Shown here one piece after another: positions 2,632-33,377 of a stretch of 33,377 nucleotides of DNA. Position numbers and translations under genes: made by a program. The notes under the pieces are model-generated. The model did no database searches and was not told the DNA's origin. It saw only the letters and a list, made by a program, of their open reading frames with translations. Every line of letters begins with the position of its first letter. Position 1 is the stretch's first letter. Origin of the DNA: Perkinsus olseni (taxonomy: Eukaryota); NCBI GenBank assembly GCA_013115125.1, contig JABANN010000388.1, positions 1 through 33,377 of the forward strand, given 5' to 3'.

Positions 2632-5528
<2,897 letters not shown>

Positions 5529-6300: not shown

Positions 6301-6413
6301 TTCTGATTATTCTGAGATGGATGCTAGTCAAGTGTGATTGAATAATGACGTTGTTAATGGAGCATGTAGAATTCGTCAAAGTGGAGTTGCGTGGAGAGTC
6401 CTCTTATTTCGCA

Positions 6414-6485
6414 GCTGAAATGGCTTAGCGGTTGGCCGCGCTGCCTCGCTCTGTGAGGGTGTGGGTTCGATCCCTATCTGCTTCC
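6414..6485 (+). pseudogene. Degenerate tRNA-like Pol III element (A box + B box)
   Basis: A box TGGCTTAGCGG (6421-6431) and T arm GTGGG-TTCGATC-CCTAT at tRNA-like spacing, but the acceptor and anticodon stems do not pair. Confidence 0.55.
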
Positions 6486-12025: not shown

Positions 12026-15000
12026 ATGAACAGGTCAGAGGAGGGCTCTAGAAGTATGACAACTCCTGCACGTGTCTCGTCACATCGTCTCTGCCGATTA
12101 GTGGAGACTACCAGTGAGGAGGCTCTGGTGCTGCAAGAGCAATTGGTGAACATGGAACGAAAGTTGATGGAGGGAAAAATGGAGCAAGCGAAAGTGAATT
12201 GGGATCTGCGTGAGCTGTGCATGAAGCTGATCAGACTGTCGACCAGAGAATACGCCTGACAACTCAGCTAGAAGAAGAGAAACGGAAAGTAGCGGGGCTT
12301 ATCGCTGAGAATATATCGTCCCAGGAGGCCCAGCTGAAGGCCGAAGAACGGCGGATAGAGGTGAATAGGTTCGGGAGTAGCGCATGACCCCCAGGCTCAA
12401 CACAGGCGGTGGAGGGCTTACTTTCGGCGAGAGCCGAGGCTCTTGACGCGCTGGAGGAGAAGAAGCAAGTGGAATTAACCTCACAGAACGACACCAACGA
12501 GCTAAGAGATGTATGATGTTGGTCCGCCTTTCAGAAGATGCGCAACATGAGAGAACTTCCTGGCCGTAGCGCAACAGGGAAACTATCTTAGTAATAGAGT
12601 GAAGAATGGGAATATCTAGCACGGTTTAGCTCAGCCCTGTCACTGTGTGGTACACCGAAGCAAGGGTTGAGACCGACGCAGCCTCGGCTATCGAAACTTG
12701 TGGCGGCTTGTCGATGAGACACACAGTTCTCATGGAGTTGTGGATGCAGGAGCTCGAAAGACTACAGCAAGAACTGAAGGAGAAAGGGGCGTTACTCAGC
12801 GCGGCACAGGAGTCCGCTGGGAGCCTTCGAGATCAACAACAGGAGGGCAAGCGAATTACTGACAAGCTGGCCGATGAATTGAAATCGGTCGAAGTGGAGT
12901 TGGCCAAGGAGAGAGCGAGGAATGAAGAACTGTCCCTGCAGGTGTGCCAACTTAGGACTCGTCTGGGGGTTAGCCCGTTAGTACTACTAACTTAGTAGGC
13001 TGGCGAATGAGAACTGTTACCCTGGTTTGGGTTGACCATAGTCTATGTTCAACCTAAACCAGAGTAACAGTTCTCCAGTTCTATGGTCCAAAAAAACCGT
13101 ACAGCTTAGGGTGGACGTTCTCACACTCAAACTCACAATTAGAACAGCGATGTGAAATGGCATCTAGTAGTGAAGAGGCTACATAGCTGATGACTGGATA
13201 CACGACAGTGTCGTGACGACACAGCATTAACTGTGTGTGGTTGGGCACTTGAAGCAGCGTTGGGAAGATATAAGGGGCATCAAGACCTCGTCGCCACGAT
13301 CGCTTAGACGTGCATAACCCTAGCCTACGCACTTTGGATCTGATCGACAGGGTTCCTCTAGCATTCCATCACCACAGATGGTGATGCTCATTCAGATAAT
13401 AAATCTGGCAGGCAAAGGGGTCGAGCTCGAAAGAGAGAGGCAACTTGCAGGAGAAGAACGAACTCACGTACAAACTGAGCTGGCGTCTCTGAAGGCAGCA
13501 CTGGGTGAGAACGAGGGCTCCTTCAAAAGGAACCTCACGCGACCTTTCAACCCAGTAGTTCACCACATTCTGGGGGTGCTCAGGCGATGAAAGGTTAGTA
13601 GCTTTTTAGCCATTCTATTTCTGTTGAAAATGAACACTTATTTACTGCTTGTCGGAAGCGGAGACAAGCGTATCTTGGACCTCAGATTCCGAGTCCAGCT
13701 CACTTCAAGAACGGCTTCGACAAGCAGAGGAAAATATCGAACAGGAGAAGCAGGAAAAGGAACAGCTGAGATCTGAACTTGAACAGGCGCGCGTACGTCG
13801 ATACCGCCGTGTTTATCATGTGTGGGTTAAGCAAATTCTCGAGTATGTCTCAGTGCTCTGCCGAGGAAGAGAAGTCTAATCTTAAGATGCGTTTAACGGA
13901 AGAGCATCGCTTGCAGGCTGAGAGGGATGCCGAGGAAATAGTAAGCCGTAAGGATTCCATCTTGTCAGCATGGTACGTGTGAGCTTACAATTCATCATCG
14001 GAGCGGCTTTGACGGAACCGGTTCAGTTGCCTTTTCACAGATCTGCTCCTGGTACCATTAGATATGGTAAGATATCATATCGGTTCGCTAAGTTTTACCT
14101 TTTCCTGGATAGAATGAAGATTATCCATCGATCTTGAAAATCAAGAAGAATTTTCTAAACCTTTTCTTTCTCCTCTAATTTTCTGAATTGAGAGGATCGA
14201 GTTGATTTATTGATAGCAACTCTCGTAAGATTCATCCGGAAGTAGAAGGCGTGTATGGATTCGGCACCATCCGAACGGTGTTCAGAGTTACTTGGTCCAG
14301 CACCGCCCTGCCGGCTGAGATTTACAAGCACTCTAACCATATCAGGACCGTATGAGTATTCAAGTTCGGGAGCTCGAGGAAAAGCTTGAGAATATCAAAG
14401 CAGAGAAGGGAAATTTGGACGCTAAGGTCGAGTCTTTGCAGATGAAACTCGATGAGAAGGTAAAGAGACGTTTGCAGATGATCTAAATGACTCGCCTCGT
14501 GGCGAAGACACTCATCACCGGTTTTCACGATGCCGATCGATCATTTCTCGGAAACCCTTGCGTTGACTTATCTTGATACTGCGCAACCTATTCGAAGTGA
14601 CATCCGAGTCCGTGGAGCTGAACAGTTGCGCATGACGATAATCGCTACACAGGAGCGGGAGCGGGCACCATGCCATGATAGGCTGAGTCCGTGTCACCAC
14701 AGGAGAATCTCCTGAAAACCCGAACCCGATCTCTCGAGGAAATCAGCTCGCTCATCGAAGCATAACTGGCGGGCTCGGCTCTCTCCTTCAGGAACAGCGA
14801 CATGTTGGTCTCAAGGCCGAGGTAGATGGACTCCGGGAGGAGGTCGCCAGGTTAGAGGAAGAGAGTGCTCAACAACGCGTGGAAGATCGATCGAAGATTG
14901 AGAAGCTCCTTGAATCGCTCACAGAGGTTAGTTCGAGGCTGGACGGAATCCGAATCCAGGGACCGCTCATGCGCGCGAATGCGCAGGACCTTGAAGAAGA

Positions 15001-16968: not shown

Positions 16969-17045
16969 AACAGATGAGCATTTAGAGTTATCAATTAGCC
17001 GGACGTGGTTCCATCCTCGGCTCAGTTCTCATTCCGACATTCCGC

Positions 17046-19367
17046 ATGCCAACCATGCGCTCTATCGCTCATCTGCTGGTGGTCTGTTTCGTGCATGGAG
17101 AAGAGTTTTCACCAGACCGTTGCTGGGCTTACGGTTACACTTACAATTTCTGCTGCCTGTCGAACCGGTCGAAGGCCTGCTGGCACGGTGAATATAATCG
17201 CACTTCCTGCTGTACTCAGCCAATCTTTGATGCAGAAACCGCTGTAGAGAACAGAACCATCTTTCTCACCGAGACTCTTGCTCCGAAGATTGACTTCCCC
17301 GATAGCAACTGTGAGCTTTATGAAGAGTGGAAGGAGTTCAGAGCCTCAGCGTGGGCAGCGCTGGGCGCTGAGCTGATCGGAGTGGAGGCAATGGTGACGA
17401 TCTGGGGACCGCGTCTGTTGGGCGAAGAATGTATGGAAAACGCGGCGAGTTGTGGTGGCTATGTAGCTCAGTGCAGAGTCGGCAACTTGGTCGTTGCTAT
17501 GAACATTCTACTTTCCTGCCTGAACCAAGTGAAGCGAGCGAGTGGCAGCGACGCTGTGCACTGCATCGCGTGGTTCGACTACTTTGCCAGCATTTGGAAT
17601 GGGATTGACTACAATATCCTGATGGCCACCAGATGGCCGGTCTTGGAGACGTTTGAAAGGCTCTTCTTCACAGTCCGTGGCCTCCGCGCAGAGAGGGGAC
17701 ACGTCTCCGAGGAATGCAATATGGATCGGCCGATCGATTGGATAACTCTCCGGGATTTCACCTCCAACGTGGAGTTCAGCGGCTATAACGAAACGGTTTT
17801 GAAAATTATATCCCATTATTCGCTAACAGAACCACCATCTCAGTTGAGGGACGGTGGTATATGCCGTCCGGGCCTGGCCATCGTCTGCATCCTCAAACTG
17901 TGGCTCTGCGCGGCATCTGAACCGAGCTGTGTCCACGCCTACGGTGACTACCTGATGCAGAACGAGCTGGAGTGGAATGACGGACTCAGTCTGATTGGTT
18001 GGCTGATGGCTGAGGGAGGATGGAACATACCAGTTTGGTTGAGAAGGATGCTCCGTCAAAGTGCACGCCATGAGATGGAGTTGGGCATCACCTTAACCGA
18101 CAGGATAATCTTGGGCGTTGATGGCTCGACAAAAATCGGTCAATTGGACAGGGCAAAACTGTCTGAGAGAATTTACAGCGATGGTGGTGGACGAAAGCAC
18201 GATGCCTTCACATGTCGGCAGGCTTGTCGGGCCTACCCCTTATTCGGCGTGGCAGGCGATTGTTTGTGTCTGAGGTCGCCATCGGACAGCCGCTATGCGA
18301 TGCAGAAGAGTGAGTTACTCGACAGTCTGGACGATAAAGGGGAGATCAAGGTTCATGAACCCATCACCGAAGGGAAAGTGGGCCCAGGCCCGATCAAAGA
18401 GATGACGCCTGACTTCCTCGCCCAAGGGAGTCCGTCGCTGTTCGCGCAGCTTTTGCCAATAGTGTCGAAGATTCCACCGTACAGAACCGTCCTGGCGACG
18501 ATGGTTTGGGGGCAGGAGATGTCAAGGCACATCCCGGCCTTCGCAAGCCGCGCTCGTGAACTCCGCGCAGATAACGACGTCATCGTCTACGCGCTCGACG
18601 GTGTTGCCTCTAAAGCGTGTGAGGATTCTGGGTTGCACTTCGTCACGGGTGAAGCGAGAAGTTCTCTTCAGAAGTATCTTCTGGTTCTGGCCTTACTGCA
18701 GCTTGACCGCGTTGTGATGTGGATCGACTTCGATGCCTACTGGTACAGACACCCAGCCTTTGCCCTTCCTCAAAACTGGGGTGATGGTGTAGAAATTCTT
18801 TCAGCGGTTGATTTCAACTCGGAGGACTGCCTTATGAATGCTATGTTCGCTATTAAGCCGAGTCTCCGGACGCGGCATTGGCTACTCGCCCTGTCTAGAT
18901 GGGTTTACGCCCGACCTTACGTCCACTGTCAAGTAGCGTGGATCATGTTCCTAGGGATCGTCGCGCCGGTGGGTCGTGATGTTATCCCTCCCGCTCCGGC
19001 ATGGGCTACCCTGGACCCCGACGTTTTCGTTAATGCTCTACTTTTCGATGGGTTGGGGTGGTCCGGCAATTATGACAGGCTTGCAGTCTTCCACTTCTTC
19101 TACGGATGGAACTCCGGTGCTGGGCTCGAAATGACTGCCATATACACCTTGCCTACATACAGAAATCTTCTACTTGAGCAAGATGCCTCGGATATCTTCG
19201 ACTTGGTGTATCGAGGGGACGATGTTATTTTACATGAGGTGTTGGGGCTGTCCATCACAGAGAGGCCGAAGGAGCTCAAGAGATGCCGCGAGAGTATGTC
19301 CTCGAGCGATCTCAACCTGGGGATCAAACCAGTGACGCATGTGGCAACTGTACGTCTTGCGCAGTAG
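17046..19367 (+). CDS. Intronless 773-aa secreted protein: signal peptide, Cys-rich CW..CC module, WSC-like Cys motif and C-terminal nucleotide-diphospho-sugar transferase (GT77-like) domain
   Basis: Uninterrupted 2322-nt ORF. Hydrophobic leader MRSIAHLLVVCFVHG; CWAYGYTYNFCC...CWHGEYNRTSCC; FTCRQACRAYPLFGVAGDCLC. GT-A signature KYLLVLALLQLDRVVMWIDFDAYWYRHP (DxD), then MNAMFAIKPS, HCQVAW and a late VFHF. Confidence 0.88.
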   Translation: MPTMRSIAHLLVVCFVHGEEFSPDRCWAYGYTYNFCCLSNRSKACWHGEYNRTSCCTQPIFDAETAVENRTIFLTETLAPKIDFPDSNCELYEEWKEFRASAWAALGAELIGVEAMVTIWGPRLLGEECMENAASCGGYVAQCRVGNLVVAMNILLSCLNQVKRASGSDAVHCIAWFDYFASIWNGIDYNILMATRWPVLETFERLFFTVRGLRAERGHVSEECNMDRPIDWITLRDFTSNVEFSGYNETVLKIISHYSLTEPPSQLRDGGICRPGLAIVCILKLWLCAASEPSCVHAYGDYLMQNELEWNDGLSLIGWLMAEGGWNIPVWLRRMLRQSARHEMELGITLTDRIILGVDGSTKIGQLDRAKLSERIYSDGGGRKHDAFTCRQACRAYPLFGVAGDCLCLRSPSDSRYAMQKSELLDSLDDKGEIKVHEPITEGKVGPGPIKEMTPDFLAQGSPSLFAQLLPIVSKIPPYRTVLATMVWGQEMSRHIPAFASRARELRADNDVIVYALDGVASKACEDSGLHFVTGEARSSLQKYLLVLALLQLDRVVMWIDFDAYWYRHPAFALPQNWGDGVEILSAVDFNSEDCLMNAMFAIKPSLRTRHWLLALSRWVYARPYVHCQVAWIMFLGIVAPVGRDVIPPAPAWATLDPDVFVNALLFDGLGWSGNYDRLAVFHFFYGWNSGAGLEMTAIYTLPTYRNLLLEQDASDIFDLVYRGDDVILHEVLGLSITERPKELKRCRESMSSSDLNLGIKPVTHVATVRLAQ

Positions 19368-20274: not shown

Positions 20275-21856
20275 TCAGGGAATGGGCAGCACAGTGCTGC
20301 CAGCACTCGGTCTGCTATATCGGTCGTACACGAGCTTTAATTTCACTGTCCGTTGGCTGCGCAGTGAAATGTTCTTGCCCGCGAGAGTCTTGCGGCGAGA
20401 CCTAAAGTATCTCGTGACTAGATAGCAGCTTCCACTCTATATTACGATCACTTGTCACTTCGGTGCCACTTGTTTTTTCAAACCGTGATTTCTCCGCAAG
20501 TACCTGAAGGTCACCATCTGATGGTGAACTTCAAGCTGACCATCAATAAGCTGTATATTAAGGCGGATTCCACCGTACGTGATTTTGTAATGCTTGTTGG
20601 ATGCAATCAGAGTTTTCGCCTTACCTTCCATTCTCACAAGACGGAGTCGCAGTGTAGCGATCGCCCTGAAAATGACGGATTAGCATGGATTGACTGTCTC
20701 CGGAGACGACGACGTGGGAGTCCCACGGTGAGACTCATGTGTCGCTTGCCCAGCTCGAAACTCACGATACCATAATGTTCACCGAACAAGCTCTACTTAT
20801 GTCGCGCATTCTGGCAACAGCGCCGGATGGTGAGGTGTACGAAGGGCCACTGAGAGACCCGGTGGTTTTTAACAAGACGAGCGCTTACTTCGAAGCATCC
20901 AGCAGGCATGATGTGTTTGACGACCCGCGACTTCTACTTTTATTGATTAGAGCTTGATGATCGTTGCCAGACACTGGCCTCCGTCGTCGTCAGTATAGAG
21001 AAGAGTTAGGCCCGTGCATCTCGGATGCGTCGTGGCCGTGATGACTTGATTGAAGAGCTGCCCATACGAAGTGCAATCACTTAGCGATGTCCTTCTACGG
21101 ATGGCATTGCCGTCGTAGAGGGACTTGAGCTTGATGTCACCCCGGGTGACTCACCCGCACGTACATTGATAAACCTCGGAAAGTCGATAACTCCATCGTC
21201 ACTGGCGGAGTATCCGCTTGGATGTCGCCAAGTGATTGGCTGCCCCCTGAGGACCTTCCTCAATGCTTTAAACGATAACCCGCTAGTCGAATCAGGAAAT
21301 AGCGTGTCAGTAAGAGCCTAGCGTTGGTACTGATAGAATGATTCACCAGGTACCAAATAATGCCTCTGGCTATGTCAACTGAATGTAGAGCGGTTGTAGT
21401 GGACAAGGGCTTCAGTAGACTTCTGATCACAGCATCCCGTTGTGCGTGGAGCTTCCGCCTAGATGTGCCTCTCAGAGTCATCTTCTCCACGGGCAGGTTC
21501 ACGAATTGTGATCCGCAATTCAGTTCTCGTTGTGCAGCATCTTGTCCTAGGGGCAGCTCATATAATGACATGATCTTTGTTTCGCCGTGAAACTTTCACG
21601 CATTCGTGATCCCACCGTGCTCGTAGTGGGGTAAAGGGCAGAATTTCTGCCCTTTCTGCCGCGGAAACCTCGAAGTTGAAGAACTTCGAATTTTGCGAAG
21701 TTGAAGTTCACAGAGCCGCGAAGATGAAAGTCCGACGTGCCACCAACATTGAAGGCCCCAAAAGTGATAGTTCTATAATAAAACCTCAATCGTATCGAAA
21801 TCGAACTCACGAAGGAGTCCTTCGGAAGGACCAATACTCGGATTAAAATGTTCCAT
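20275..21856 (-). CDS. Hypothetical multi-exon gene with a PB1-like segment (partial model)
   Basis: Canonical splice signals on the minus strand (GTGAGT, GTAAGG, TTTTCAG). Exon 20947-21094 encodes RTSLSDCTSYGQLFNQVITATTHPRCTGLTLLYTDDDGGQCLATI, resembling the PB1 acidic OPCA motif (LxYxDEDGD). Phases are not fully resolved. Confidence 0.38.
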
Positions 21857-23518
21857 CACGAAACTCAAAGTTTCGAGTGTGGAATCCTCCGTGAATTTGA
21901 TGGATATTCTTTAACCTCTTTTATTTCTATTGAATGGTATATGTTGATGTTTTCCGGAGCAAGTTTGATTTAACTTCAACACCGCTATGTCCATGCGTGC
22001 AGAAAAAAGATTTTTTTGGCGCGCGAAAAGTGAGCTTCGCCTTGCAAGGCAAGGCTTGCCCTAAGATTCTCGACAAGAGCTCTTGAAAACATCCTCGATG
22101 ACGTACTCTGTGCATGGTAGCAGGTGACACAGCCGGTCTATCAATCAGTACCGAGTGCCTCACTCGGGCAGCCTGCCAGGGTTGGAGTGTTCAGTCATGC
22201 TACGCGGCCGATTGACGACATCCCCACCGAGGTCCTCAACTCGATAAGTCACAGCGATCGTTGATTATATGTTTCATCAAGCTACATCGTTGGTGGATGT
22301 GACGCGTCCTGTCACCAAGTTGATCGTTTGGCGTACTTAACAGCTCAGGTTAGTCTCTCCTCCGAGGAAGGTATTCTCGTAGATTAATGTCATTTATATG
22401 TCCCTCGTTGCTTCGTTGCTTCGACGGCCTTTTCAATACCATCCCGCCACCTGCTCGGCCAAGACCACACGGTCCAGCTGAAGGTAGTAAATTGGAGGGC
22501 ATCGTGTGCGGAAATTTTCAAGATTTTCCGGAAATTTGTGGATGATAAAATTCGGGTTTTACGAAATAGGTTGCCAATCGGTACCCAGATCGATGGAGTT
22601 TTTTTCAACAACTTCAACATTATGACGAATCTCATTCTCCTACGTAGTGCATTGCGAATCTCCTGCCCGAGAGGGGTTCTCGAATCCCTTCTCATCATTG
22701 TAGTGACGATTGTGAACCGGCCTCGGCAAGATCCGGACGCGCCCCCGACACCGTTACTCGTACTGGTAGACCTACTGGTCATCGTGTTAAATAAGCCTCT
22801 ATTGAGACGAAGCCACGCATGTTGCGATTTTGATCTCCAACAGCAAATTATTCCAGATTCATTAACTTCTATGGTATGACATAGAAGTTCCCGCACTGCT
22901 CTGCGAGAGAATCTTTTGTTCTGTGAGTTCCATGCTCGACTAAATTTGCAAATCTTCAATATCTTGGGATTTTTCGGCCACGCTAGTCGAGAACCCGTTA
23001 GTTGCCCGAAAGTGAGATGAGGGTCCAACGCCGACAATGCGGCTTAGTTGGACTAACACCATGGGGCAGTGCTTCAGCTTGTGCCTCTTCTCCATGTGAT
23101 GGTCCTTCCGAAAATACGGAAAATTCCGCTGAGCCCTGTTCTCTAAAATCGTCACTGTGCGCTCAGAGAGGCCCATCCGCCAACCTCCCGAAGGTTCAAG
23201 AGCTAAGTCGCCTAAGGATGACTCGATGCTCGGCAGTGCGAGTACCGCTAGTCGGTTGGGGAAGAAGTCAGGCGCGTAGGCAACTTTCAAATCCGGGCAT
23301 TCCGTTACTGCACGGAAGCTTTCAGGAAGCTTTCACGGAATTTATTTAGTTTCTAGATGAGCCTGTGGATCATCGGTTTTTTGGTGACAATTTTTTTGTG
23401 AAAATTATCCTGGATCTTCTCGAGTAAAGAATCCGCTGATCTAATAATGTATCTTGTAAAAGATCTTCACAAAATTCGCTTTTATATCTGCAGTTTTCGG
23501 TATGGCAGCTCCGAAAAT

Positions 23519-26500
23519 ATGAGGTTATTCTGGTTCAAAGGGAGCCTCAGTTCTGCTCTCTCCTGCGCTCGTCGTTTGGATTGCGCTGCCGTCGTGTATT
23601 CGGTGAGGTCAGTGCGTAACCGAATGGTCGAAGGTTCGATGCCCGGGTAGAGTATTTTTTCAGTTACCCCAAAGCCTCGTATACGTCTGTTTCGAGCACC
23701 ACTGGCGTGAGCGTCAAGTCGTCGGCATTGGACACTATTATTCTTAATGTAAATCTCGCTGCGCCCTAGTGATCGATAAGGTATTGAACTCTCGTTCAGG
23801 TTGCTGTTCTCACTGATAGTCTTGACGAGGACCGGGTATTGATAGCGGATATTTGCCGGAATTGCAGACGAAGGCGGAAAATTAGTCAGTGGGCGCTGAA
23901 TAGTGAAGTTAGGTAATATCGATCGAGTGATCGATTTGGGTTGGCCAGGAGAGGACGCAATATTTGATGCTGAAATTATTATGAACTGGAATGCTGCATA
24001 GAATGGTTGCTGAGTATTTCGATCGTAAAATTGAAGCCTGAATCTGGCTAGGTTGACCTAAAGATACCGTTGCGGGTCGAACTTAAAGATACGCCGTTTC
24101 GTTCAGGGTATTTACGGTCTCTTCCTATCTAAGTTCAGTTGGGGAATCCTTGGATTTACCGGAGAATGCACTCGAGGTGGCGAGTTTGAAGGGAATCAGG
24201 TCATGGGTTGACATCATTGTGAGTGCGCAACCTATTTCGTATCTTGCATGCTTCAACCTCGGATATTTCAGGTTGTCTCATGCCCGCCTCTCCTGTGCGA
24301 AAATATTCTGCGTGCGCTGCGTGGATGCCATCGCCAATCATTGACGGCGCCCTTCATCATCGCTGTGGTAAAATTGACGGCCCGGGAATCGAACCTGCGA
24401 CCTATCCAAAGAACCTCTTTGCAAAACAGCTTGACTGGGATTCGAACCCGGGAACTTCTCAGGTTCTACGTCCCGAATTCACCCTTCGTTTTGATGACCG
24501 TGGTATGGCAGCTTTGAGCGATGCGTCGACGTGGACGCTTCGGCCGGATGGATTATCTGCGGTTGGAGTGGTACTATTAAATTCGCCTGTGGGCTCGAGG
24601 ATGCTGCAGGAATCTTCGCAGTGCGCAGAGAGTATCTTAGCTTTGTGAGAGGTTTCGATGAGAATATCAGATTCTTAGATCGGATATCGGTAGGGTTGAA
24701 CCTTTGCGGAATACGTATGGCGTGGTTTGGCAGATTTACCACAATGGTTTGTCCGGTTACGCTGTTGGGTCGCATGATTTAGTGTGCTCGGAGATATTGA
24801 CGATGTTGGTGGCGAATGGAGATGGACGAGAGCCGCTAAGGTTCGACCAGGTAGTATATCCAAGACGGTCAGGTGCTGAAAATAAAGTAGTTACAACAAG
24901 AGTAGATTGTTTTGCTCAGTGAGCGTTATGGAGCGGTTCAGGTTGATAGCGGAAGTAGTTGAGAGATTGTATAATCGGTAGTATGGGGACAGCTCGATTG
25001 TGTTATGTAGACGGTTCGAACCAAACCGTTATTCAAATCGGCAAAGTAGAGATGTCTCCGCTGGTGGGAGTTGGAATTTCTTGGTAGTATTTTTCACAAC
25101 AATTTGTTTATTTTTATATTTTACATGTATGTATACAGCACTCAGTTGCCTTCCTGATGCTTGTACTCGACCGGTGGTCAGCGACCGCATCTCAATAATC
25201 CTTCCACAACGTGGAGGAAGCTGCTAGGGTATCAGCGATATCTGACGCGAGAATCATATGCTCTGCGAGATGCCAGGATCAAATCTGTATGGAACCGGAC
25301 GGGTAATACTCTCAGCGCCATCTCGGCGAAGTCCTTCGGTTGTTGCTTTGCGCAAATCGAAATTTTAGGGTTTATTAGTATAGAGAATTATACGTATTGA
25401 AAATATATATTCTCAATGAATAGATCACCGTACCATACACACAAACGTGTGCTCGGAACTTGTTGTTCTTCTCAGGATCGAAAAGCGCTCGCCCGATTGA
25501 TCGATTTGCTGATAACACAGCCCGGCATACAGCCGACGGAGATGGCTCAGATGAGGCTGTCGACTGAGTTTTCGAATTGGCTGGAGAAAAGGAATTTATT
25601 GGGCAGATTTCCACTGTTAAATGACGCGATAAGTAGTAGGGTGCGGGGATCGAACCGGGGACCTTCGTGTTGTTGGGTTCAGGTGGAATACATGCTAGAG
25701 GCTTTGACTCGTGGAGTGGTGATGCTTGTCATTTTGTATCCCGAGATCCCGGGTTCGAATCCCGGTAGGGGCATTTTGGCCGTGTATAATTGAAGCCTTT
25801 GTTTAGTGTAGGTTTTTGTACCGCCCATGCGACACGCATGGAATCTTTAATTTTCTAATCGATCACGTGATCGATGAACCATTATCTTTTGATATCACGA
25901 CTTTGGATTTGGGGAGTTGTGTGGAGGTGGCGGGTTCAATTCTCGGGTCCGCTTTTTTTATTATCTTCCACTCAGTGGAATCCACTGGGTGGGTCGCGCA
26001 AGTTTATGAGGTTACAAGATTTGAGAATATTGGCGTTTCCCGGGTTTGGCTGCTGACGAGGGCGCCATGCATGTGGAAGGCGCTGCTTCACATGAAGGTG
26101 TTTGGTGGGGTGGTAGTAGTTGTGTTCAGTCTGTTCAAGACCCTGGGTTCAAATCCCAATGGTAGTATTGCTGTGCGAGATTTCTTCTCACTCAGAGTAA
26201 GCTGGAATGTTGAAATTCGATACTTTATTGTTTGAAGGACTCGTATCTTCGAGGTTGCCCGTGAAAGATACGGAAAAGGTCGTCTTGCTTACACCCTTTG
26301 ATTCATAACAGGTTTTGTTGTCTTCTAGTATGTTATCACCTCGAGTAGCATCTACCGATCAGTACGAGAATCTTGATCCACTACGAGAAGCAGGGGACAC
26401 TCGAGCCATCGCCGAGGTAGTCGTGGTTTAAACGTCACCGTTGTTTTTCTTTCGCTGTCGATGGCTGACGGCGGAGGATGAAAGAAAGTGGACTCTTTGC

Positions 26501-27899
26501 GCATCTTCAGTAAAGTTGATAGTCTCATTTTTGTTCGTGTATCGTGTGGCGAGAGAAATTGAATATTTGCAGGATTTTTTTCACGAAATTTATCGTGAAA
26601 ATTAAAATTTTTTGAACGCCTTGTGTATCTTCCAGCAGAATTGATATCTTTATTATTTTAAGTTCACCCCGCGGATAAAGGCACTGAATCGTATCAATAG
26701 AGCGTGAAAGCGTATTGGGCGGAGTTCGCTTCTACCGTCTTCCTTGGACGTTTCGGAAAAAATTGCGAGAGAAGTGGGCTTGTCCGTAGCGGGAAAATTT
26801 TTATTTCTTTTCCGGGGTATTGGGAATTTTGGATTCGGCGTTACTCTGTTTTTTACGCAGGAAAACTTGCCAGTGTTTTTTGGAATTGTTCGTTGGATGA
26901 ATATCCCTAAGTTGTTGGAAATTTTTACAGTATTTATAGTATTTTCATGGAAGAAAATCTTTCCCCTATTGGAAGTATCCTATTTTTCTTCCTTCGGACC
27001 AAATCTTAAGATCGAGATTTTCTTTCCCCATCCGCGTTCAGATGCCTTCCAGAGTGCGTAAAGGGTCGTGGCAGCATGATTCGCCAAAATTGAGCAGAAA
27101 TGTGTCGGTTGTTGAGTCCCGGGAGCTGTCCGAAAGAATTTCTACCGCGGAGAGGAACGCCGAAGAGAATCAGAAATTGTGTCGGACGGAGAAGCAGCGG
27201 GTGGACAGGTCCGTGGATGACGATGAAGATGAGGATGAAGAGGGGTCAAGGAAGATCAATTTTGGTGATGAAGTAATATGCAGGGTGTTGGGATTGAACA
27301 CGGGTGGTCTCGCACAGACTGCCTGGTGGATTGTGATATAGAAGAGTATTTTGTTACTTCGGGTGTATCGAGGGTTTGCGAGGGTGACACGTAGAACGGC
27401 TGGGTCGACGGTTCCGTCCGTGCGCTGTTTATTTTTCATTATGAAATAATCGGCGGACGTCGAGCCCTGTGATTGGTGGTATTCATCGAGCTTATCAACT
27501 CCGCTCATCTTGAGGATTCTTCGCCGCATCAACTCTGCCGTTAATCATGAGGGCGCATTTATCGAAACATTTTTCAGAACTTCGGATCGAATCACCTCCG
27601 CTCCGCCGTACCGTTATTTTCTCTGTTTCTGATGATCATAAGCTCCTTTCTGTCAGGTGAATGTGCGTTTCTTCAACCGCACCGGGTCCAGCTTGGCGCT
27701 GCGTGGACGGTCGCACAGCCAAAATGGTGTAGCTGATCTGGCAAGCTGCGTGAAGATGTTCGACGGTCGTAGTAATAGCAAATCGTGTTTGGGCAAGACG
27801 ACGAGTTATGAGAATCTCGGGGACTTGGAGAGTATAGCGGAGGAGATGGGCAAGCCGAGGGAGATGATGATGAGCGGTCGGAGGCCTCGGTCAAGGTGA
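23519..27899 (+). CDS. Hypothetical multi-exon gene whose introns carry tRNA-like relics
   Basis: In-phase exon chain 24272-24367 (VVSCPPLLCENILRALRGCHRQSLTAPFIIAV) | 24463-24561 (VLRPEFTLRFDDRGMAALSDASTWTLRPDGLSA) | 24610-24644 (ESSQCAESILA). Further exon-like pieces: DRKALARLIDLLITQPG, MLSPRVASTDQYENLDPLREAGDTRAIAE, NVSVVESRELSER...DDDEDEDEEG, VNVRFFNRTG...RPRSR. Both ends are uncertain and this may be more than one gene. Confidence 0.5.
23610..23660 (+). pseudogene. tRNA 3'-half/B-box relic filling most of intron 23603..23663
   Basis: TAA-CCGAA-TGGTC-GAAGG-TTCGATG-CCCGG-GTAGAGT-A-TTTTTT-CAG. The oligo-T doubles as the intron polypyrimidine tract. Confidence 0.55.
24369..24410 (-). pseudogene. 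tRNA 3'-half/B-box relic (first of a tandem pair in intron 24368..24462)
   Basis: Minus strand GGAT-AGGTC-GCAGG-TTCGATT-CCCGG-GCCGTCA-A-TTTT. Confidence 0.6.
24423..24462 (-). pseudogene. tRNA 3'-half/B-box relic (second of the tandem pair)
   Basis: Minus strand CTGAGA-AGTTC-CCGGG-TTCGAAT-CCCAG-TCAAGCT-G-TTTT. Confidence 0.6.
25635..25672 (-). pseudogene. tRNA 3'-half/B-box relic
   Basis: Minus strand AACACG-AAGGTC-CCCGG-TTCGATC-CCCGC-ACCCTAC. The 25643..25666 core is 23/24 identical to 3007..3030. Confidence 0.6.
25701..25777 (+). pseudogene. Degenerate tRNA-length element with perfect T arm (possibly Gln-TTG derived)
   Basis: 73 nt from GCTTTGA to TAGGGGC-A, then TTTT. The T arm CCGGG-TTCGAAT-CCCGG is perfect. 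GTGGAGTGG is A-box-like and the loop is TTTTGTA, but the anticodon stem is broken and the 5' part may be exonic. Confidence 0.6.
25921..25959 (+). pseudogene. tRNA 3'-half/B-box relic
   Basis: GTGG-AGGTG-GCGGG-TTCAATT-CTCGG-GTCCGC followed by T7. Confidence 0.5.
26103..26167 (+). pseudogene. Degenerate tRNA-like relic in predicted intron 26098..26196
   Basis: A-box-like TGGTGGGGTGG, then AGACC-CTGGG-TTCAAAT-CCCAA-TGGTAGT-A. Confidence 0.5.
27278..27318 (-). pseudogene. Highly degenerate tRNA 3'-half relic in predicted intron ~27265..27341
   Basis: Minus strand GAGACCA-CCCGTG-TTCAATC-CCAAC-ACCCTGC-A. Its 3' end resembles those of the 25635 and 2992 relics. Confidence 0.35.
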
Positions 27900-28296
27900 T
27901 AAGGGGAAGGAGTGGTATGGGCTGTTGGAAATGTGTTTTTGAAAAAATTATCGGTCCATCAGGGTGTTGGAACTTGTAGGAGGTTCGCATAGATTTTGGT
28001 TATACCGCAGCTTGACTTGGTAAATTCTGAGAATTTGGCGTCAAAAAAAGAGGGAATTTCATGAAAAATTATCGATGATGATCGAAGTGTTGGTATTATA
28101 CTTATCCCGGCGCGAGCGGCATTGAGGGTTGTCAGGTCGTACGCTGACTTGGAGGAGATTGACTTCTAGACGTCCTGAGGGAAGATACTTAACAATATTA
28201 TTAGTGCTGCACTTTCTGCGTATCTTATGTGCATGCGTGCAATTTCCAACTTGCAAGATTCCACCGCTTATTGTTCATCATTCATTGCATTGATTA

Positions 28297-28911
28297 CTAA
28301 ATACATATTCGAAGATACTGTGGAAGTATCTCAGCTTCATTCATGGAAGATACGAAATAGGTCAAGTCATATCCACCCACCGTCACCGGACAATAATTGT
28401 TTCTGGTAGTGTCCTATTGTCAAAACGCTTATCAAGCGCTCATAGAGAATCTATTCACATACTGCTGAGATCCCCTGGAGGCTCCGGGTTCGAATCGCGG
28501 TGGAGTCATTTCTATGGCATTTCCCGGTCGCCCTGCTGCCGTCTGAAGGCGAGCCGATGACCAATTTTGTGGCGCAGTGACGCTGATTATACCAGTGGTC
28601 ATCAGGGGGCGCTGTTCTCATTCCTACGGCAGTTTCTTGAAAGATTCTCCAACAGGCTATGAGTTGGGTTCAATATGAGAATGTTCGGGCGGAATTTCGT
28701 GGTAAAACCGCGCGGTAAAACTGTGGTACGTCTTGTCTGCGAACTTCACCACCATTTCCCGATGGATTCTACCGTTCAACGATTTCTAATTTTAAAAGGA
28801 CCGGAATTTTTCCACTTTGAGCGTCGAATTTTTCCGAAATTTTCCATACATTTTCGAGTTTATTCCTGAACAACCGAAAGTTCGAAAGCGACAGCGACAG
28901 CGGCAGCTCAT
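28297..28911 (-). CDS. Possible small multi-exon hypothetical gene
   Basis: Exon-like segments IHREMVVKFADKT|IFQETAVGMRTAPPDDHW and HYQKQLLSGDGGGYDLTYFVSSMNEAEILPQYLRICI* with plausible splice sites. Model incomplete. Confidence 0.3.
28470..28511 (+). pseudogene. tRNA 3'-half/B-box relic
   Basis: CTGG-AGGCT-CCGGG-TTCGAAT-CGCGG-TGGAGTC-A-TTT. It may overlap an exon on the opposite strand. Confidence 0.45.
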
Positions 28912-29196
28912 GGAAGTGATTCGGGGATGGTGTGGTATGGTTCATTAGCACTTGAAACCCGTGTGGCTGAGGAGCGCTGGAGAGTGGACGAAAGGATATG
29001 AGAAAAATACGGCGTGAGAGAATTCTGAAGGAGTTAATCGGCAGACCGGGCAGGTGTGAGGGCGGTGAATTTTCTTGTCAGCAGTGACGGCCTTGGGTTG
29101 CTGTTTCTTCTGTATTTTTTGGAGATTTTTTCAATTTTTTTTCTTCTAGTTTTCCTCCTATTTTCTGCGAAGACGTTTTCTCGTGCTACGATACGG

Positions 29197-30056
29197 ATGG
29201 TGAATAGAGTGCCGAGGTATTTGGTTTTCGACAAAGACGGCACGCTGTTGGATCTGAATAAAACCTACGGGGCATCAGTGGAGGTTTTGGCGAAGCGGAT
29301 GAGCGATGAGTTTGGCGTGGAGCCGCGAAGGTTGGAGGACGTGCTCGGGTTTGACTCCGAGCGGAAGCGTTTCAAGGAAGATGCGTTATGTATGACTGGT
29401 GAGGATTTGATTCTTCAATCGCGCACTGCGAAGATCTTATTATCTTTTCAGTGAGCAACTCGGAGATGGCGCGGAAGGTGGAGGATAGTGGCATCCCAGC
29501 AGGACCGGTGATGAGCCACATGAACAATTATCGACCCACTTTTGTGGCGGCGTGCAACTTACGAGTGCTTTTCGGCGACTTGCGGGAATTGGGAGTACAG
29601 AAAGTCGGAGTGTTGTCACTAGACGATGTAAGTGTGATGATCTTGCTATCTTGCTTCATCTTGCATTTCCTCAGGTAGCTGCTGCTGGGCGGTTCCTAGA
29701 AGCTCAGGGCCTCTCGTCCAGCGACGTGGACGGTATCGTCGGAGGTGATATGAATTTGCGACCGAAGCCGAGTGATGACGGGGTAAAATTTTTATTGGAA
29801 AATTGGAAGTGTGGGGACTTGACAGAAGCGATGATAGTTGGTGATCATCCTATGGATATGAAGGTAGCTAGGGGTTTGAAAATCGATCAGTTGATCGATT
29901 GTGAGCGTATCTTAGGTTGGAGCGGGCTTCGGATGGCGCGTTGGTGTGTACGGTACTGGTCTGAGCTCTCCTGAGGCACTCTGGGGTGCCGGAGCTACTC
30001 ACGTGGTTCGGGATGTCTCAAAGTTGATCGATTGTGTTATTAAAGAGGATCCGTGA
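29197..30056 (+). CDS. HAD-superfamily hydrolase, phosphoglycolate-phosphatase-like, 4 exons
   Basis: Exons 29197-29398, 29452-29627, 29675-29863 and 29916-30056 join in phase. HAD motif I LVFDKDGTL, motif II GVLSLDD, motif III RPKP, motif IV MIVGDHPMD; C-terminal VGVYGTG...AGATHVV. Confidence 0.92.
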
Positions 30057-30104
30057 GATTGTTTTGTTGTTGTTTTTGTTGCTTCAATTCGTACTCCTTG
30101 AAAA

Positions 30105-31790
30105 TTAGGAGGAGCTGCGCGAGCGGGGTGTGGATTTGAGAGAGTCAGGAGAGTGGGCTGCGGATAAATTTGGGTACTCATTAGTCGTTATTGAAGCTGA
30201 GCCCTGGGTGAAAATTCCGTCAACGATAGAAAGGCGAACTCCTTTGCGTCCGTACTTGAGCGAGTTTACAAAATTCCCATCACGAAAGGCAGCCCGTCGG
30301 CTAGCTTGGCCCTGATGCAATAGGGAAATACCTCGTACGAGAGAGAGTATCATCAATAAATTAAAGTTCTCCTTTTTTGGCGTACGCAGACGAAGTCCTC
30401 CTCGAGAGGAGCTTTCAGTACTTTTCAATGCTCATGGTCATGATACCCAAGTTAGGGGTTCGGGAGAGATAGTCGTGAAACCCATCTTTCATCGCTCTGT
30501 TGTTATTTCCCTCTTGACTTAACAAAACCATGCTTCAGCCAGTAATAGGGATATAGGAAGAGATACTGATCTAACGCTCAAATATGCACCACAATATCGT
30601 AATAACATTAAAATGTCGTCGTCTAGCGAGGAGGGACAAATGCACAGCCTAGCTCCGAAAATTACACAAGAGTATCACAAATTATGGTACCCATGACGGA
30701 GGGGGTTCACTACACTCTGGGAGGTGGAGTTGAGCTGATTATAACCACCCAAGTTTTGCTACGGACAATGCTGCCAATACCCTCAGTCCGACCTACTCCC
30801 CTCGATGGTCAGCATCCCCATCATCCTATCAGTGCCAGCTTCCTTGGCATCAGGCACCTACCTTCGTCCCAAGCTACTTCACAAGGCCCTCAGGCAGCTG
30901 ATGGGTGGAGCTGACCTCCGAACAGGGGCGGAGGTCGTTGAGGTAGGGACGGTCCTAGTTGGTCTCACATCACGGCATTCCTAAAATCCGTAGCGTATCA
31001 GATTTAAGAACGCTGTCACGTAGAGTATAGCATTGCATCTTGAGGGCTTAGATTATTGTGGTTTTCATAACACAACCTCAATGCTTCAGAGCAAAACTCT
31101 TCCGCAAAAATTCGAAAAATTTCCTCCGCAAATTCATAGCAGACACGGCGCAAAATACCAACTTTTGCCGAAAACCGGATATGCTCAGAATCTGTGGAAG
31201 GGCGTCCGCCTTTACCTCAGATTCACTCCAATACCACCCCAACCCTATTTAATATATTACGGATGTTTGGGTACGATTCGTCTGTTGATACTGCTGGGAA
31301 CGAGGTCAGTTCTGGGTGATACTCTTACCGTTCGAAGATGGCTACGGTGCTCCTCCTGATCATCATCTTGTTCTGGATTCCTGGCATCTACTGGCACCTC
31401 GTGAATTTGTCTAGGGGCCTGCTGATGTCTGTGAGACAAATTACTTTAGATGCCCTCCTAGCCGTTATCGGGTTAAGCTCATACTGGAGAGTGTCACAGA
31501 CCGACCCGAGATTTGCCATCCTATCCTTTCATCGTCTGTCTTCAGTGCAGCTCCTCATCGGAGCAGCGAAAAATGTCTAACCACATTTCCCCGGGGGTTG
31601 CGGCTCCCCTCAAAATGCGGCTTCTTAGGTTCTGCGGGTTTGTCCTTCTAAGCCGGCCGAAGGATGCAAAGTGGGGTGTCTCAGTGTGTAAATTTTCGTT
31701 CTCGCTGGGTAGGGTCTCCATGAGCGGTCCAAGTGTCACACCGTGGTGGAGTCGGATGGTCGGAGCACCGGCGCGAGTAAGGCTCGGCAT
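30105..31790 (-). CDS. Hypothetical low-complexity multi-exon gene (partial model)
   Basis: ATG 31790 MPSLTRAGAPTIRL...; exon HQQAPRQIHEVPVDARNPEQDDDQEEHRSHLRT|GTAAG; terminal exons GQASRRAAFRDGNF and GSASITTNEYPNLS...RSRSSS* (stop 30105). Confidence 0.4.
31329..31348 (-). other. Spliced-leader-like 20-mer followed by a splice donor
   Basis: Minus strand ACCGTAGCCATCTTCGAACG|GTAAG. The first 14 nt are identical to the 5' end of the Perkinsus SL as recalled (ACCGTAGCCATCTTGGCTCAAG). Confidence 0.4.
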
Positions 31791-32351
31791 TTTCGGAATT
31801 TCTGAGCTTATGTAGGTCGTGGATCTACCCGGGCCTTGAATGCATTCTCGACTTTCGAGAATGCCGAAGTAAGATCGGGAAGTGGGAGACCTGTGGGGGA
31901 AGGAGAGGTATCTTCAGCCGGCTGATGGTCAGACTAGGGGATCTAGGCTCGGGCCGGAGGAACGGAGACGGATCTTTGAACGGCTTTGTGAACCTCGGAG
32001 GGACTACGAGAGGAGGTGATTGAAAGGTGACTGCTGCTTCGATATTAATGCTTGATAGGCGCTAGCGGTAGAAGTTCTGTTTTTGGGGGGAAAGGCTATA
32101 CCGAAAAAGCGGTATAGCTCCCCTTCTCGAGGGTGATAATTATTGATTAATAATACTAGTAGTAAATAGTCTGAATAAAGGTGACTAATACTACCAGGGG
32201 GCCGCAATCACTCACGGAGTTGTTATTAAAAGTTCTAATGCCGTCTGCGGCCGACTCAGAGTAACGCCCATTTTCAGCAACCAACTAGTCATCCCAATGA
32301 CCAGTTCTTATATCAGTAACCACTAATCCTTACTAATAACCGAGTGATATA

Positions 32352-33377
32352 CACAGTGTGAACCCAATACACCTCTCCACAAATTCTTAGCATAAGTGGT
32401 GTGCGACCCCTAATACGTTCATCGAGTCGAATTAAGGCCTGAAATTTCAGTATAACACCCTACTAGATCCTATACACCTCTCCGCCAACGCCTATGATCT
32501 CACTCTACCGACCCACAGAGATCCAGCTTAACCTCACTTTTTCAACTCCACACAATCTTAGCATATTATCTAAGCCTAATAATTCGACTAGTTTATAGCG
32601 ATTAGAAAATCATATCAATCGGCTCATAGAATACTCAGTAGCTCGTCTTAGCACCCTGCAGAGATAAAACATCAACGAGACGCTTAGTAACAGAGTTAGT
32701 GCAACTTTTGATCACCTCGGGAGGAATTTGGGACCAGCAATGGAAAATGGCGGTTCTCAGTTCTGCCAGAGTCCGAAAAATCGGCTTGCCTGGGCCATAG
32801 AGTGTTCTCACCATGTAGCCCCAGATGTTTTCGATTGGGCTGAGGTCAGGGCTTAAGGCTGGCCACTGAACAGACGTCACTCCGCTTGCACGGAGCCACT
32901 CAGCGGTGCTCCTGCTGCTATGGCAAGGAGCGTTGTCTTGCTGGAAGACGATACCTTGGGCCTTGAACTCTTCCCAGTGTGGTAAGAAATGATTGGAGAG
33001 TATCTCCTGATAGGCAGCACTGTTCATGCGGACCGTGACTTCCACTAAGGCCACGGTATGGTCATGTCTGATAGCGCCCCAGACCATCACACCACCGCCG
33101 TTGAAGGCTCGCTTGGTTTTGAGCTGTTCCTGGTCTTCGGGTAGATTCCAGGTGTAGAATAGGCCGTCAGGACCATCAAGGCAGAAGCGCTTTTCGTCAC
33201 TCCACACCCAGTTGCGAAAATCAGTGTTGCCTTGGAGATGCTGGCGAGCGAAGCTCAGGCGCCTGGCCTTGTGGTTGTCCGTCAACGGCGGTGTAGTCTT
33301 CAGCTTCACGTAACGCGCACCCTCATCACGTAGGAACCTCCGTACCGTCTCTGGCGAGACTTGCAGACCAAGTTCGT
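32352..33377 (-). mobile_element. Tc1/mariner superfamily DNA transposon (Tc1/Tc3-like, DD34E), truncated by the window edge
   Basis: Contains a transposase ORF. Probable end TA|CACAGTGTG at 32350-32360, resembling Tc1/Tc3 TA-CAGTG ends. Subterminal direct repeats 32375-32394 vs 32546-32565 (18/20) and 32367-32378 = 32472-32483. Confidence 0.85.
32635..33377 (-). CDS. Tc1/Tc3-type transposase (5' part outside the window)
   Basis: Frame is open to the edge. ELGLQVSPETVRRFL (second HTH), WVWSDEKRFCLDGPDG (first D, Tc3-like), VMVWGAI, FQQDNAPCH and SPDLSPIENIW, with 34 residues between the second D and E. Confidence 0.96.
   Translation of the reverse strand, partial: ELGLQVSPETVRRFLRDEGARYVKLKTTPPLTDNHKARRLSFARQHLQGNTDFRNWVWSDEKRFCLDGPDGLFYTWNLPEDQEQLKTKRAFNGGGVMVWGAIRHDHTVALVEVTVRMNSAAYQEILSNHFLPHWEEFKAQGIVFQQDNAPCHSSRSTAEWLRASGVTSVQWPALSPDLSPIENIWGYMVRTLYGPGKPIFRTLAELRTAIFHCWSQIPPEVIKSCTNSVTKRLVDVLSLQGAKTSY

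Follow-up and report, generated by a model that had tools for sequence, protein, structure and literature searches.

The origin of new spliceosomal introns is a long-standing question, and among the known sources, transposons that happen to bring or recruit splice sites are documented best. Introners have been described from Micromonas, Aureococcus, fungi, Polarella and Amoebophrya, and a hallmark of them is their spread over many genes, while introns can also be gained from filler DNA at repaired double-strand breaks (Daphnia and others). Here, we analyzed a stretch of 33,377 nucleotides (nt) from Perkinsus olseni (contig JABANN010000388.1, assembly GCA_013115125.1, positions 1 to 33,377 of the forward strand), hereafter called the window; Perkinsus is a pathogen of oysters and clams for which a transfection system exists. 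Between 23603 and 28511, the window carries nine short elements that resemble the 3' half of a transfer RNA (tRNA) gene. They lie in and around two protein-coding genes, here called AB and C, where several of them coincide with the boundaries of spliced introns. The best reading of the finding is an introner-like intron source that stems from tRNA genes; introners themselves are already known in relatives of Perkinsus (PMC7789003 and PMC12130899).

Like introners, the elements are repeated sequences that meet intron boundaries and carry or co-opt splice sites, and several can occur in one gene. Unlike introners, they are about 40 to 55 nt long, come from tRNA-gene 3' halves, are diverged and not near-identical, are without terminal inverted repeats or a clear target-site duplication, and are known here from two genes. 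With tRNA pseudogenes and tRNA-derived short interspersed elements (SINEs) they share the B box, the RNA polymerase III (Pol III) terminator, the occurrence on both strands and the lack of function as tRNA, although most copies here are 3' halves without the A box. SINE spread requires an internal promoter, half of which the fragments lack, and the SINE features of a body like that of a long interspersed element or an A-rich tail are likewise missing from copies that end at the terminator. The B-box-only sites of yeasts that bind transcription factor IIIC (TFIIIC), i.e., extra TFIIIC (ETC) sites or chromosome-organizing clamps, are similar in that they have a B box but neither an A box nor a tRNA gene. 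In contrast to ETC sites, the flanks here reveal tRNA descent, and the sites are found in transcribed RNA polymerase II (Pol II) genes, where they occur in either orientation and at splice sites. Finally, the filler-DNA introns of Daphnia are also short new introns of captured sequence with very short terminal direct repeats, but the captured sequence here is repeatedly a tRNA 3' half with its terminator, in a fixed polarity to the splice site.

In the literature searched, we found no description of such tRNA-derived elements in papers on Perkinsus and introners, no paper joining introners with a tRNA-derived origin, and no mention of a tRNA pseudogene among the papers listed on intron gain or spliceosomal introns. 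The main texts of PMC9860276 and PMC12130899 contained none of the words 'tRNA', 'SINE' or 'Perkins', one supplement file of the latter being outside this search. In Dataset S2 of PMC12130899, a Polarella glacialis introner family of 1,709 copies is labeled 'tRNA' by RepeatClassifier.

Several elements coincide with the boundaries of RNA-confirmed introns

The sequence basis of the analysis was the 33-kb window together with public RNA contigs. Contigs of four runs from four studies (X7, X8, X9, and X19) were placed on 21000-32000; X19 is recorded as RNA, and the other three, presumed to be RNA, gave the same spliced forms. All intron counts below refer to the 15 joints listed out of 22. Fourteen of the 15 were GT..AG on the plus strand, and each was then adjusted to the exact GT..AG. 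The nine elements and two further copies were the following.

e23610, 23625-23663, plus strand: sense 3' fragment, tRNA positions 44-73 at 23625-23654, then T6 and CAG; 3' end of intron 23276-23663
e24369, 24368-24421, minus strand: antisense unit 1 of the 95-nt intron; GTAAAA, then tRNA positions 73 back to ~25/26
e24423, 24422-24462, minus strand: antisense unit 2 of the 95-nt intron; trailer complement, positions 73 to 38, terminal CAG
e25635, 25633-25682, minus strand: the whole 50-nt intron; GT and the antisense of tRNA positions 73 to 26
e25701, 25701-25777, plus strand: full-length (73 nt) decayed pseudogene and T4, with A-box remnant; last coding exon of gene AB
e25921, 25925-25961, plus strand: sense 3' fragment and T run, one-mismatch B box; downstream of the AB stop codon
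e26103, 26095-26167, plus strand: sense tRNA-like copy with A-box remnant; ~145 nt upstream of the spliced-leader acceptor of gene C
e27278, 27273-27308, minus strand: antisense 3' fragment; 5' end of intron 27273-27656
e28470, 28463-28511, plus strand: sense 3' fragment; 3' untranslated region (UTR) of gene C
e3010, 2999-3028, minus strand: extra 3' fragment, nearest to e25635, leave-one-out score 31.7; TTTT 3 nt past the discriminator
e6464, 6413-6485, plus strand: extra full-length decayed copy; A box with one mismatch, T stem with 5/5 pairs

The RNA-supported introns and the host genes, all on the plus strand, were as follows.

22484-23166, 23276-23663, 23749-23799, 23913-24106, 24219-24271: introns, first gene (AB region)
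24368-24462, 24571-24733, 24851-24919, 25303-25475, 25633-25682: introns, first gene (AB region), continued
26417-27041, 27273-27656, 27896-28135: introns, second gene (C)
29399-29451 (53 nt): intron, downstream HAD-type gene
22354-25768: host gene AB, from RNA joints and the database protein P0009
26310-28651: host gene C, from RNA joints, a spliced-leader acceptor and a conserved protein

Five of the nine elements were inside RNA-confirmed GT..AG introns. The initial annotation had placed most of them in predicted short introns of a single plus-strand gene; this did not hold, since two genes are involved and short introns (of 95 nt and 50 nt) contain only three of the elements, two more being at the ends of introns of 388 and 384 nt. 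The splicing itself was borne out by the RNA contigs, with the four element-bearing joints each found in three or four of the four runs.

Two introns consisted wholly of element sequence, and two had an element at one end. The 50-nt intron 25633-25682 (joint 25632>25683, 4/4 runs) contained GT and the antisense of tRNA positions 73-26, and nothing more. The 95-nt intron 24368-24462 (joint 24366>24462, 4/4 runs) was made up of two tandem antisense units with no other sequence: the first opens with GTAAAA, the complement of a T4 terminator plus AC, and continues from position 73 to ~25/26, while the second has the complement of the next terminator, positions 73 to 38, and the CAG of the 3' splice site. 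The 384-nt intron (joint 27272>27657, 4/4 runs) opens with GTAATA, followed by the complement of the e27278 discriminator and acceptor. In the 388-nt intron (joint 23275>23664; 3/4 runs, X7, X8, and X19), which ends with e23610, the T6 terminator and CAG of the element form the 3' splice site, 9 nt past the discriminator.

In four of the five intronic elements, the tRNA 3' end was 2, 6, 6, or 9 nt away from the intron boundary that it faces; the fifth adjoins its tandem partner. For 30-nt elements placed at random position and orientation in 3,168 nt of intron, such a placement had a probability of 0.047 for one element and P = 2.3e-5 for at least four of five, under a 9-nt limit that was picked after seeing the data, which takes some weight off the result. 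Orientation differed between intronic elements (1 sense, 4 antisense) and the others (4 sense, 0 antisense; Fisher P = 0.048, on small numbers). The local 5' splice-site consensus is GTARTA, and 8/14 RNA-supported introns begin with GTAA or GTAG. For each of the three antisense cases, the complement of the trailer or acceptor end made up positions +3 to +6 of the 5' splice site, and the complement of trailer plus acceptor end reads GTAAAA, GTAGTA, or GTAATA. Furthermore, the shortest RNA-supported introns here measure 50-53 nt, so that no older intron could underlie an insert of 48 nt or of two units. GT or GGT stands both at the intron start and just past the intron end in 3/3 introns with antisense elements versus 3/11 others (P = 0.055), a repeat whose 2-3 nt are not enough for a target-site duplication.

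We favor, at a probability of roughly 0.55, the reading that the elements are debris of the amplified tRNA genes of Perkinsus, of which 3' fragments have been intronized and supply splice signals, in the manner of a tRNA-derived introner. A tRNA-derived intron system was among the alternatives offered by the initial annotation, and both the tRNA descent of the elements (see below) and the exact fit of several of them to RNA-confirmed intron boundaries speak for it. The same copies could be plain neutral debris, i.e., tRNA pseudogenes and fragments that build up in any sequence that is free to vary. They would then lie at splice sites by chance or as a by-product, without having created introns or supplying splice signals. 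The presence of elements also in a UTR, a spacer, and a terminal exon would fit this, as would the window-wide excess of one-mismatch B boxes and the zeros for Perkinsus in the introner survey of PMC12130899. Likewise, only 1 of 14 B-box-like places in 22484-28651 falls in a coding exon, as would be the case for any neutral element. Neutral accumulation does not, however, account for two introns that are wholly element and that no shorter intron could underlie, for the polarity and adjacency of the elements (P ~2e-5 under random placement), or for the finding that, in 3/3 antisense cases, the element or its trailer encodes positions +3 to +6 of the 5' splice site, and we consider it an unlikely account, albeit one to be taken seriously.

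The elements stem from tRNA genes and are probably non-functional

All nine elements were present where the initial annotation had located them, six with an exact B box (GGTTCRANNCC; 23633+, 24385-, 24438-, 25646-, 25752+, and 26146+) and three with one mismatch (25933+, 27290-, and 28487+). In an alignment on the B box that also included the copies at 3010 (minus strand) and 6464 (plus strand) and the window's three real tRNAs, represented by their 3' halves, no gap was needed between the variable loop and the discriminator. At least 90% of the rows kept A-G at positions 44-45. The described layout and tRNA 3' spacing were thus common to all nine. At least 4 T directly followed the discriminator in 5/9 (23610, 24369, 24423, 25701, and 25921), or in 6/11 with 3010 and 6464 included; element 28470 has TTT at this place. 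None of the 11 copies had CCA after the discriminator, and this, along with the kept T run, indicates descent from tRNA genes or primary transcripts and not from mature tRNA.

Between 1 and 5 of the 5 T-stem pairs were kept across the elements, and broken T stems occurred beside B boxes, with 2/5 pairs in e23610 and 3/5 in e24369, both with exact B boxes, and 1/5 in e27278. The A box was scored at its expected distance and taken as present at up to 2 mismatches, the level of the real tRNAs and one reached by 7.9% of random 41-nt segments. Among the nine, only 25701 and 26103 had A-box-like sequence, as did 6464 outside the set. The five intronic copies had 3-5 mismatches, which is the level of random DNA, while an A box was kept in 2/4 non-intronic elements. 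The copies hence fall into two classes, full-length decayed pseudogenes (25701, 26103, and 6464) and 3' fragments without a 5' half (the other eight). The initial annotation described the 5' half as mostly decayed; the intronic copies, however, stop at a sharp edge and have no 5' half beyond it, suggesting that these were born truncated and did not decay.

The elements do not score as tRNA genes. ARAGORN and Rfam found tRNA genes in the window only at 971, 2127, and 8066 (Val, Val, Thr), and in this check, too, no element reached a tRNA score. The Rfam tRNA model RF00005 (threshold 29 bits) had no match at the elements with E up to 10, whether run over the whole window or over 23500-28600. Intron-bearing tRNA genes and tRNA genes of odd structure were also rejected: allowing introns in ARAGORN added only an implausible call with a 631-nt intron, and the 74 calls obtained at a lowered threshold were read as noise. 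In fragments without an A box, 0-4 of 7 acceptor pairs could form, and no adjoining 5' partner was seen. The elements thus hold the B-box consensus without a neighboring Pol III gene. An internal promoter of the SINE type (A box plus B box) was not seen across the nine, since the B box was there in 9/9 (at up to one mismatch) and the A box only in 25701 and 26103; the copies in the window end at the terminator, with no tail and no duplication longer than 3 nt. We regard it as near certain that the elements are real and derived from tRNA genes. The three real tRNA genes comprise two near-identical tRNA-Val(AAC) genes (971-1044 and 2127-2200, 1,156 nt apart) and one tRNA-Thr(AGT) gene (8066-8140), and the window is rich in tRNA genes and in their debris alike.

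The T run in 5/9 elements and the B box or near-B box in all nine would also be expected of working Pol III genes of an unusual kind, either half-tRNAs joined in trans (split tRNA genes) or genes for small, intron-born tRNA-like RNAs, which the RNA contigs used here are incapable of revealing. Such a function is nevertheless very improbable, given that 7/9 elements are without an A box and an acceptor partner, that T stems are broken and no tRNA score is reached, and that the acceptor strands differ and no pattern of matching 5' halves appears in the window.

B boxes are in excess and clustered

The window contained nine exact matches to GGTTCRANNCC, one of them being the real tRNA-Thr gene, whereas 100 dinucleotide shuffles averaged 0.53 matches and never gave more than 3; the motif density proposed as a check on the initial annotation is therefore well above that of shuffled controls (9 versus 0.53 expected, with 3 the largest). 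With up to one mismatch, there were 34 matches versus 15.25 expected (maximum 25 in the shuffles), an excess that may reflect a tail of copies in decay. Of the eight exact matches outside tRNA genes, six fall inside 2,513 nt (23633-26156; P = 3.7e-4 under uniform placement).

An exact or one-mismatch motif beside broken T stems (2/5 and 3/5 pairs, and 1/5 in e27278), six of them within 2.5 kb and no A box in 7/9, is what might be seen if the B boxes were under selection for putative TFIIIC binding without Pol III, serving chromatin organization or insulation. The appearance that the B box is kept while the rest has decayed is, however, largely a product of selection, because the B box was the means by which the elements had been found. 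An excess exists for decayed B boxes as well, and the intronic copies lack the 5' half at a sharp edge instead of showing it decayed. Sequence is also conserved in the variable loop, on the 3' side of the T stem, in parts of the acceptor strand, and in the terminator, which TFIIIC is not known to need; common descent fits this conservation better. Selection on the B boxes would also leave the match to splice sites unexplained and is not required by any of the observations, and we hold it to be improbable as the main cause, with a role of TFIIIC possible as a secondary use.

Clustering of the elements in 2.5 kb and the two tandem units in one intron could also have come from internal duplication, in which an intron with a tRNA-like insert was copied along with exons into a local array. 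A repeat search of 21000-31000 returned only pieces of 16-40 nt and no exon-sized blocks, which largely refutes duplication within the gene. The flanking exons are unrelated as well, and the acceptor strands differ between copies, so that this origin has very little left to commend it.

Some copies are nevertheless related among themselves: 23610 matched 24369 at 79% over 33 nt, 25701, 28470, and 26103 matched at 86% and 68% over 28 nt, and 24423 matched 25701 at 91% over 23 nt. The likeness of these pairs goes beyond the general features of tRNAs. At position 65, 25635, 27278, and 3010 all have a C, which breaks the T stem, and 6/7 acceptor bases are identical between 25635 and 27278, hinting, on small numbers, that some copies may have been made from templates that were already defective.

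A large donor pool for such fragments exists in the genus, given the hundreds of tRNA genes reported for P. marinus (349 tRNA-Leu-CTT and 116 tRNA-Gly-GGA copies, next to the tRNA-targeting Dada transposons; PMC3706591). A few tRNA genes present in hundreds of copies would thus be a ready supply of fragments. Dada itself was rejected as the source of the fragments, as it cuts in the A box and no Dada was nearby. It inserts at TAGCTC in the A box and, unlike what is seen here, would leave 3' pieces of ~66 nt beside a transposon of 5-11 kb (PMC3706591), while our fragments start at ~26 or 38. Pfam searches of 31 frames found no transposase near the elements, the only matches being a Tc1-like fragment (32.6 kb), a HAD domain, and weak coiled-coil matches.

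Intronized tRNA fragments as a proposed source of introns

The sequences with their tRNA layout and the splicing are observed directly, whereas for the preferred reading, the intronization of tRNA-gene debris, we infer both an origin by insertion and a donation of splice sites. The elements would be non-functional descendants of tRNA genes, some of them full-length pseudogenes and others 3' fragments that keep the Pol III terminator, and a fragment landing in a Pol II gene would persist because it is spliced out. In an antisense copy, the complement of trailer and acceptor would serve as a GTARTA-like 5' splice site, whereas in a sense copy the oligo-T terminator would act as the polypyrimidine tract and the following CAG as the 3' splice site. 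Since the 50- and 95-nt introns consist of the units alone, they were most likely created by the insertions; replacement of an earlier intron base for base would give the same result, creation being the simpler reading. In this respect, the fragments would act like very short tRNA-derived introners.

Several observations weigh against this reading. The evidence comes from one locus with two genes, and the copies have diverged, the subgroups being 68-91% alike over 23-33 nt and not near-identical, so that there is no sign of a recent burst. No clear target-site duplication was found, only the recurring GT/GGT. Four of the nine elements are outside confirmed introns, and no clear element is present in 10/14 RNA-supported introns of the region. 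The 388- and 384-nt introns are mostly non-element sequence, and it is just as probable that an older intron received the insertion at its edge, or that the splice site shifted, as that these introns were created. When a profile of the eleven copies was run over eleven other introns (ten RNA-supported and one predicted), the p values were 0.005, 0.021, and 0.053, with eight values of at least 0.12 (~0.05 by Fisher's method, by hand), and the support for decayed copies in other introns is thus only marginal. Finally, the supplement of PMC12130899 lists assemblies of P. olseni, P. marinus, and P. chesapeaki with two zeros each, which we take to mean that no introner families were found. The survey groups introns by sequence similarity, and short, diverged units could escape it.

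As to how the fragments arose, the 3' parts of nascent Pol III pre-tRNAs may have been reverse-copied into DNA and inserted into Pol II genes, which would constitute a new, tRNA-derived class of introner; we put this forward tentatively and think it rather doubtful. Such 3' parts would end in a U run and break off at 26/27 or 37/38, where modifications would halt reverse transcriptase, and an antisense copy would be a ready intron of ~50 nt, with a target-derived GT, then a complement reading GTARTA, and on to the next CAG. Where the inner ends of the fragments could be placed, they were at ~25/26 (two units) and 38 (one unit), near m2,2G26 and m1G37, which we take to be reverse-transcriptase stop sites. 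Together, the ends at the terminator, the lack of CCA, and the inner ends at ~25/26 or 38 suggest copying from nascent Pol III transcripts. There are, however, three such cases, and the inner ends may equally reflect the need for an AG.

In contrast to transposons, the material here would be tRNA-gene fragments that give a 5' splice site one way and a polypyrimidine tract with AG the other way. Should the pattern hold across Perkinsus, it would show that intron gain can draw on the Pol III genes of the cell itself, that very short introns can be born whole, and that surveys relying on near-identical repeats miss a class of intron source. If the RNA-mediated origin is true, intron gain would be tied directly to the output of Pol III, and a substantial fraction of perkinsid introns of the modal length, 50 nt, could be explained in this way. 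Limited to this locus, the finding would be a neat but minor case of intronized pseudogene debris; its importance hinges on the genome-wide pattern.

The two host genes

Gene AB had an open frame of 290 amino acids at 22354-24850 once eight RNA-supported introns were removed. The unnamed database protein P0009 joins exon 24734-24850 to exons 25476-25632 and 25683-25765, and because of this we treat these exons as one gene. Fifty-seven residues of P0009 between exons 24734-24850 and 25476-25632 match nowhere in the window, RNA contigs cross 24917-25301 despite stop codons in all frames, and loose contig ends at 24979 and 25012 fit a diverged second allele. The haplotype at 24851-25475 may be a broken or alternative form of gene AB. 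The frame 24223-24648, used as a query, had no relative among longer proteins; queries with other exons gave relatives.

The 3' end of AB is supplied by e25701, whose pairing is well kept (acceptor 6/7, T stem 5/5) and which provides the last ~22 codons and the stop codon at 25766-25768. An RNA contig spans 25683-25898 unspliced, and P0009 has the same terminal residues as the e25701 stretch; this is an exonization of a tRNA pseudogene. The B box of e25701 is translated as PGFE, and the AB stop codon is within its acceptor strand.

Gene C had a frame of 203 amino acids at 26309-28166 once three introns were removed, with an ATG at 26330 and a stop codon at 28167-28169. Its spliced-leader acceptor is at 26310/11, where one X19 contig carries nine loose letters, CTTGGCTCA, before the AG. 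The published Perkinsus spliced leader ends in ...CTTGGCTCAAG (PMC3101222), and CTTGGCTCA corresponds to this 3' end, which indicates that gene C starts anew and that there are two genes. Elements 25921 and 26103 are located between the AB stop codon and this spliced-leader site. RNA contigs run unbroken over 28134-28651, which places e28470 in the 3' UTR of gene C; the stretch before its T arm may be a long variable arm.

The gene C protein is conserved in three species, P. olseni, P. marinus, and P. chesapeaki, and shows 97% identity with a protein of P. olseni and 86% with one of P. marinus. A metagenome scan for orthologous DNA with the glycosyltransferase-like neighbor gave no matches, and a second one, based on the alignment of gene C, yielded a single weak match (36% identity) located at the edge of a contig, which was not used. 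The one long open frame of the window, 16986-19367, encodes a product 91% identical to a P. olseni hypothetical protein and 70% to one of P. chesapeaki.

Other observations in the window

Near the extra fragment e3010, there is a possible minus-strand 3' splice site (TTTTAAAG) 11 nt past the discriminator, in an 89-nt GT..AG interval (2988-3076). The arrangement is the same as in the sense copy e23610, and no convincing open frame was found around the 89-nt interval.

One joint, 24457>29642 (CT..AT, three runs), connects 23 letters of the e24423 T-arm region through six extra letters to an ATCTTGC-repeat stretch (intron 29628-29674), and 29640-29673 is common to several contigs with different flanks. 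We do not read this joint, with its short side of 23 letters, as splicing. It probably stems from another locus, where a like element adjoins this short repeat, or from a chimeric assembly through the T-arm sequence and the repeat.

The palindromic 16-mer TCGATCNNGTGATCGA is present at 23919-23934, 25859-25874, and 29883-29898 (6 strand-matches versus 0.39 expected). Loose ends of contigs from all four runs begin at 23916 and 25853, which suggests that a piece shared with other loci or haplotypes starts at the motif; TCGATCNNGTGATCGA could be a regulatory site or a repeat terminus.

A near-perfect long hairpin at 13009-13075 gave weak matches to a microRNA-precursor family on both strands (E ~2, far below threshold) and is probably a plain inverted repeat. 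A Tc1/mariner-type transposase fragment (DDE_3, HTH_Tnp_Tc3_2) lies on the minus strand at 32635-33375 and runs off the end of the window. Downstream of gene C, a HAD-type hydrolase gene at 29038-29974 has the DKDGT motif (HAD_2, E 3.9e-5) and an RNA-confirmed 53-nt intron at 29399-29451.

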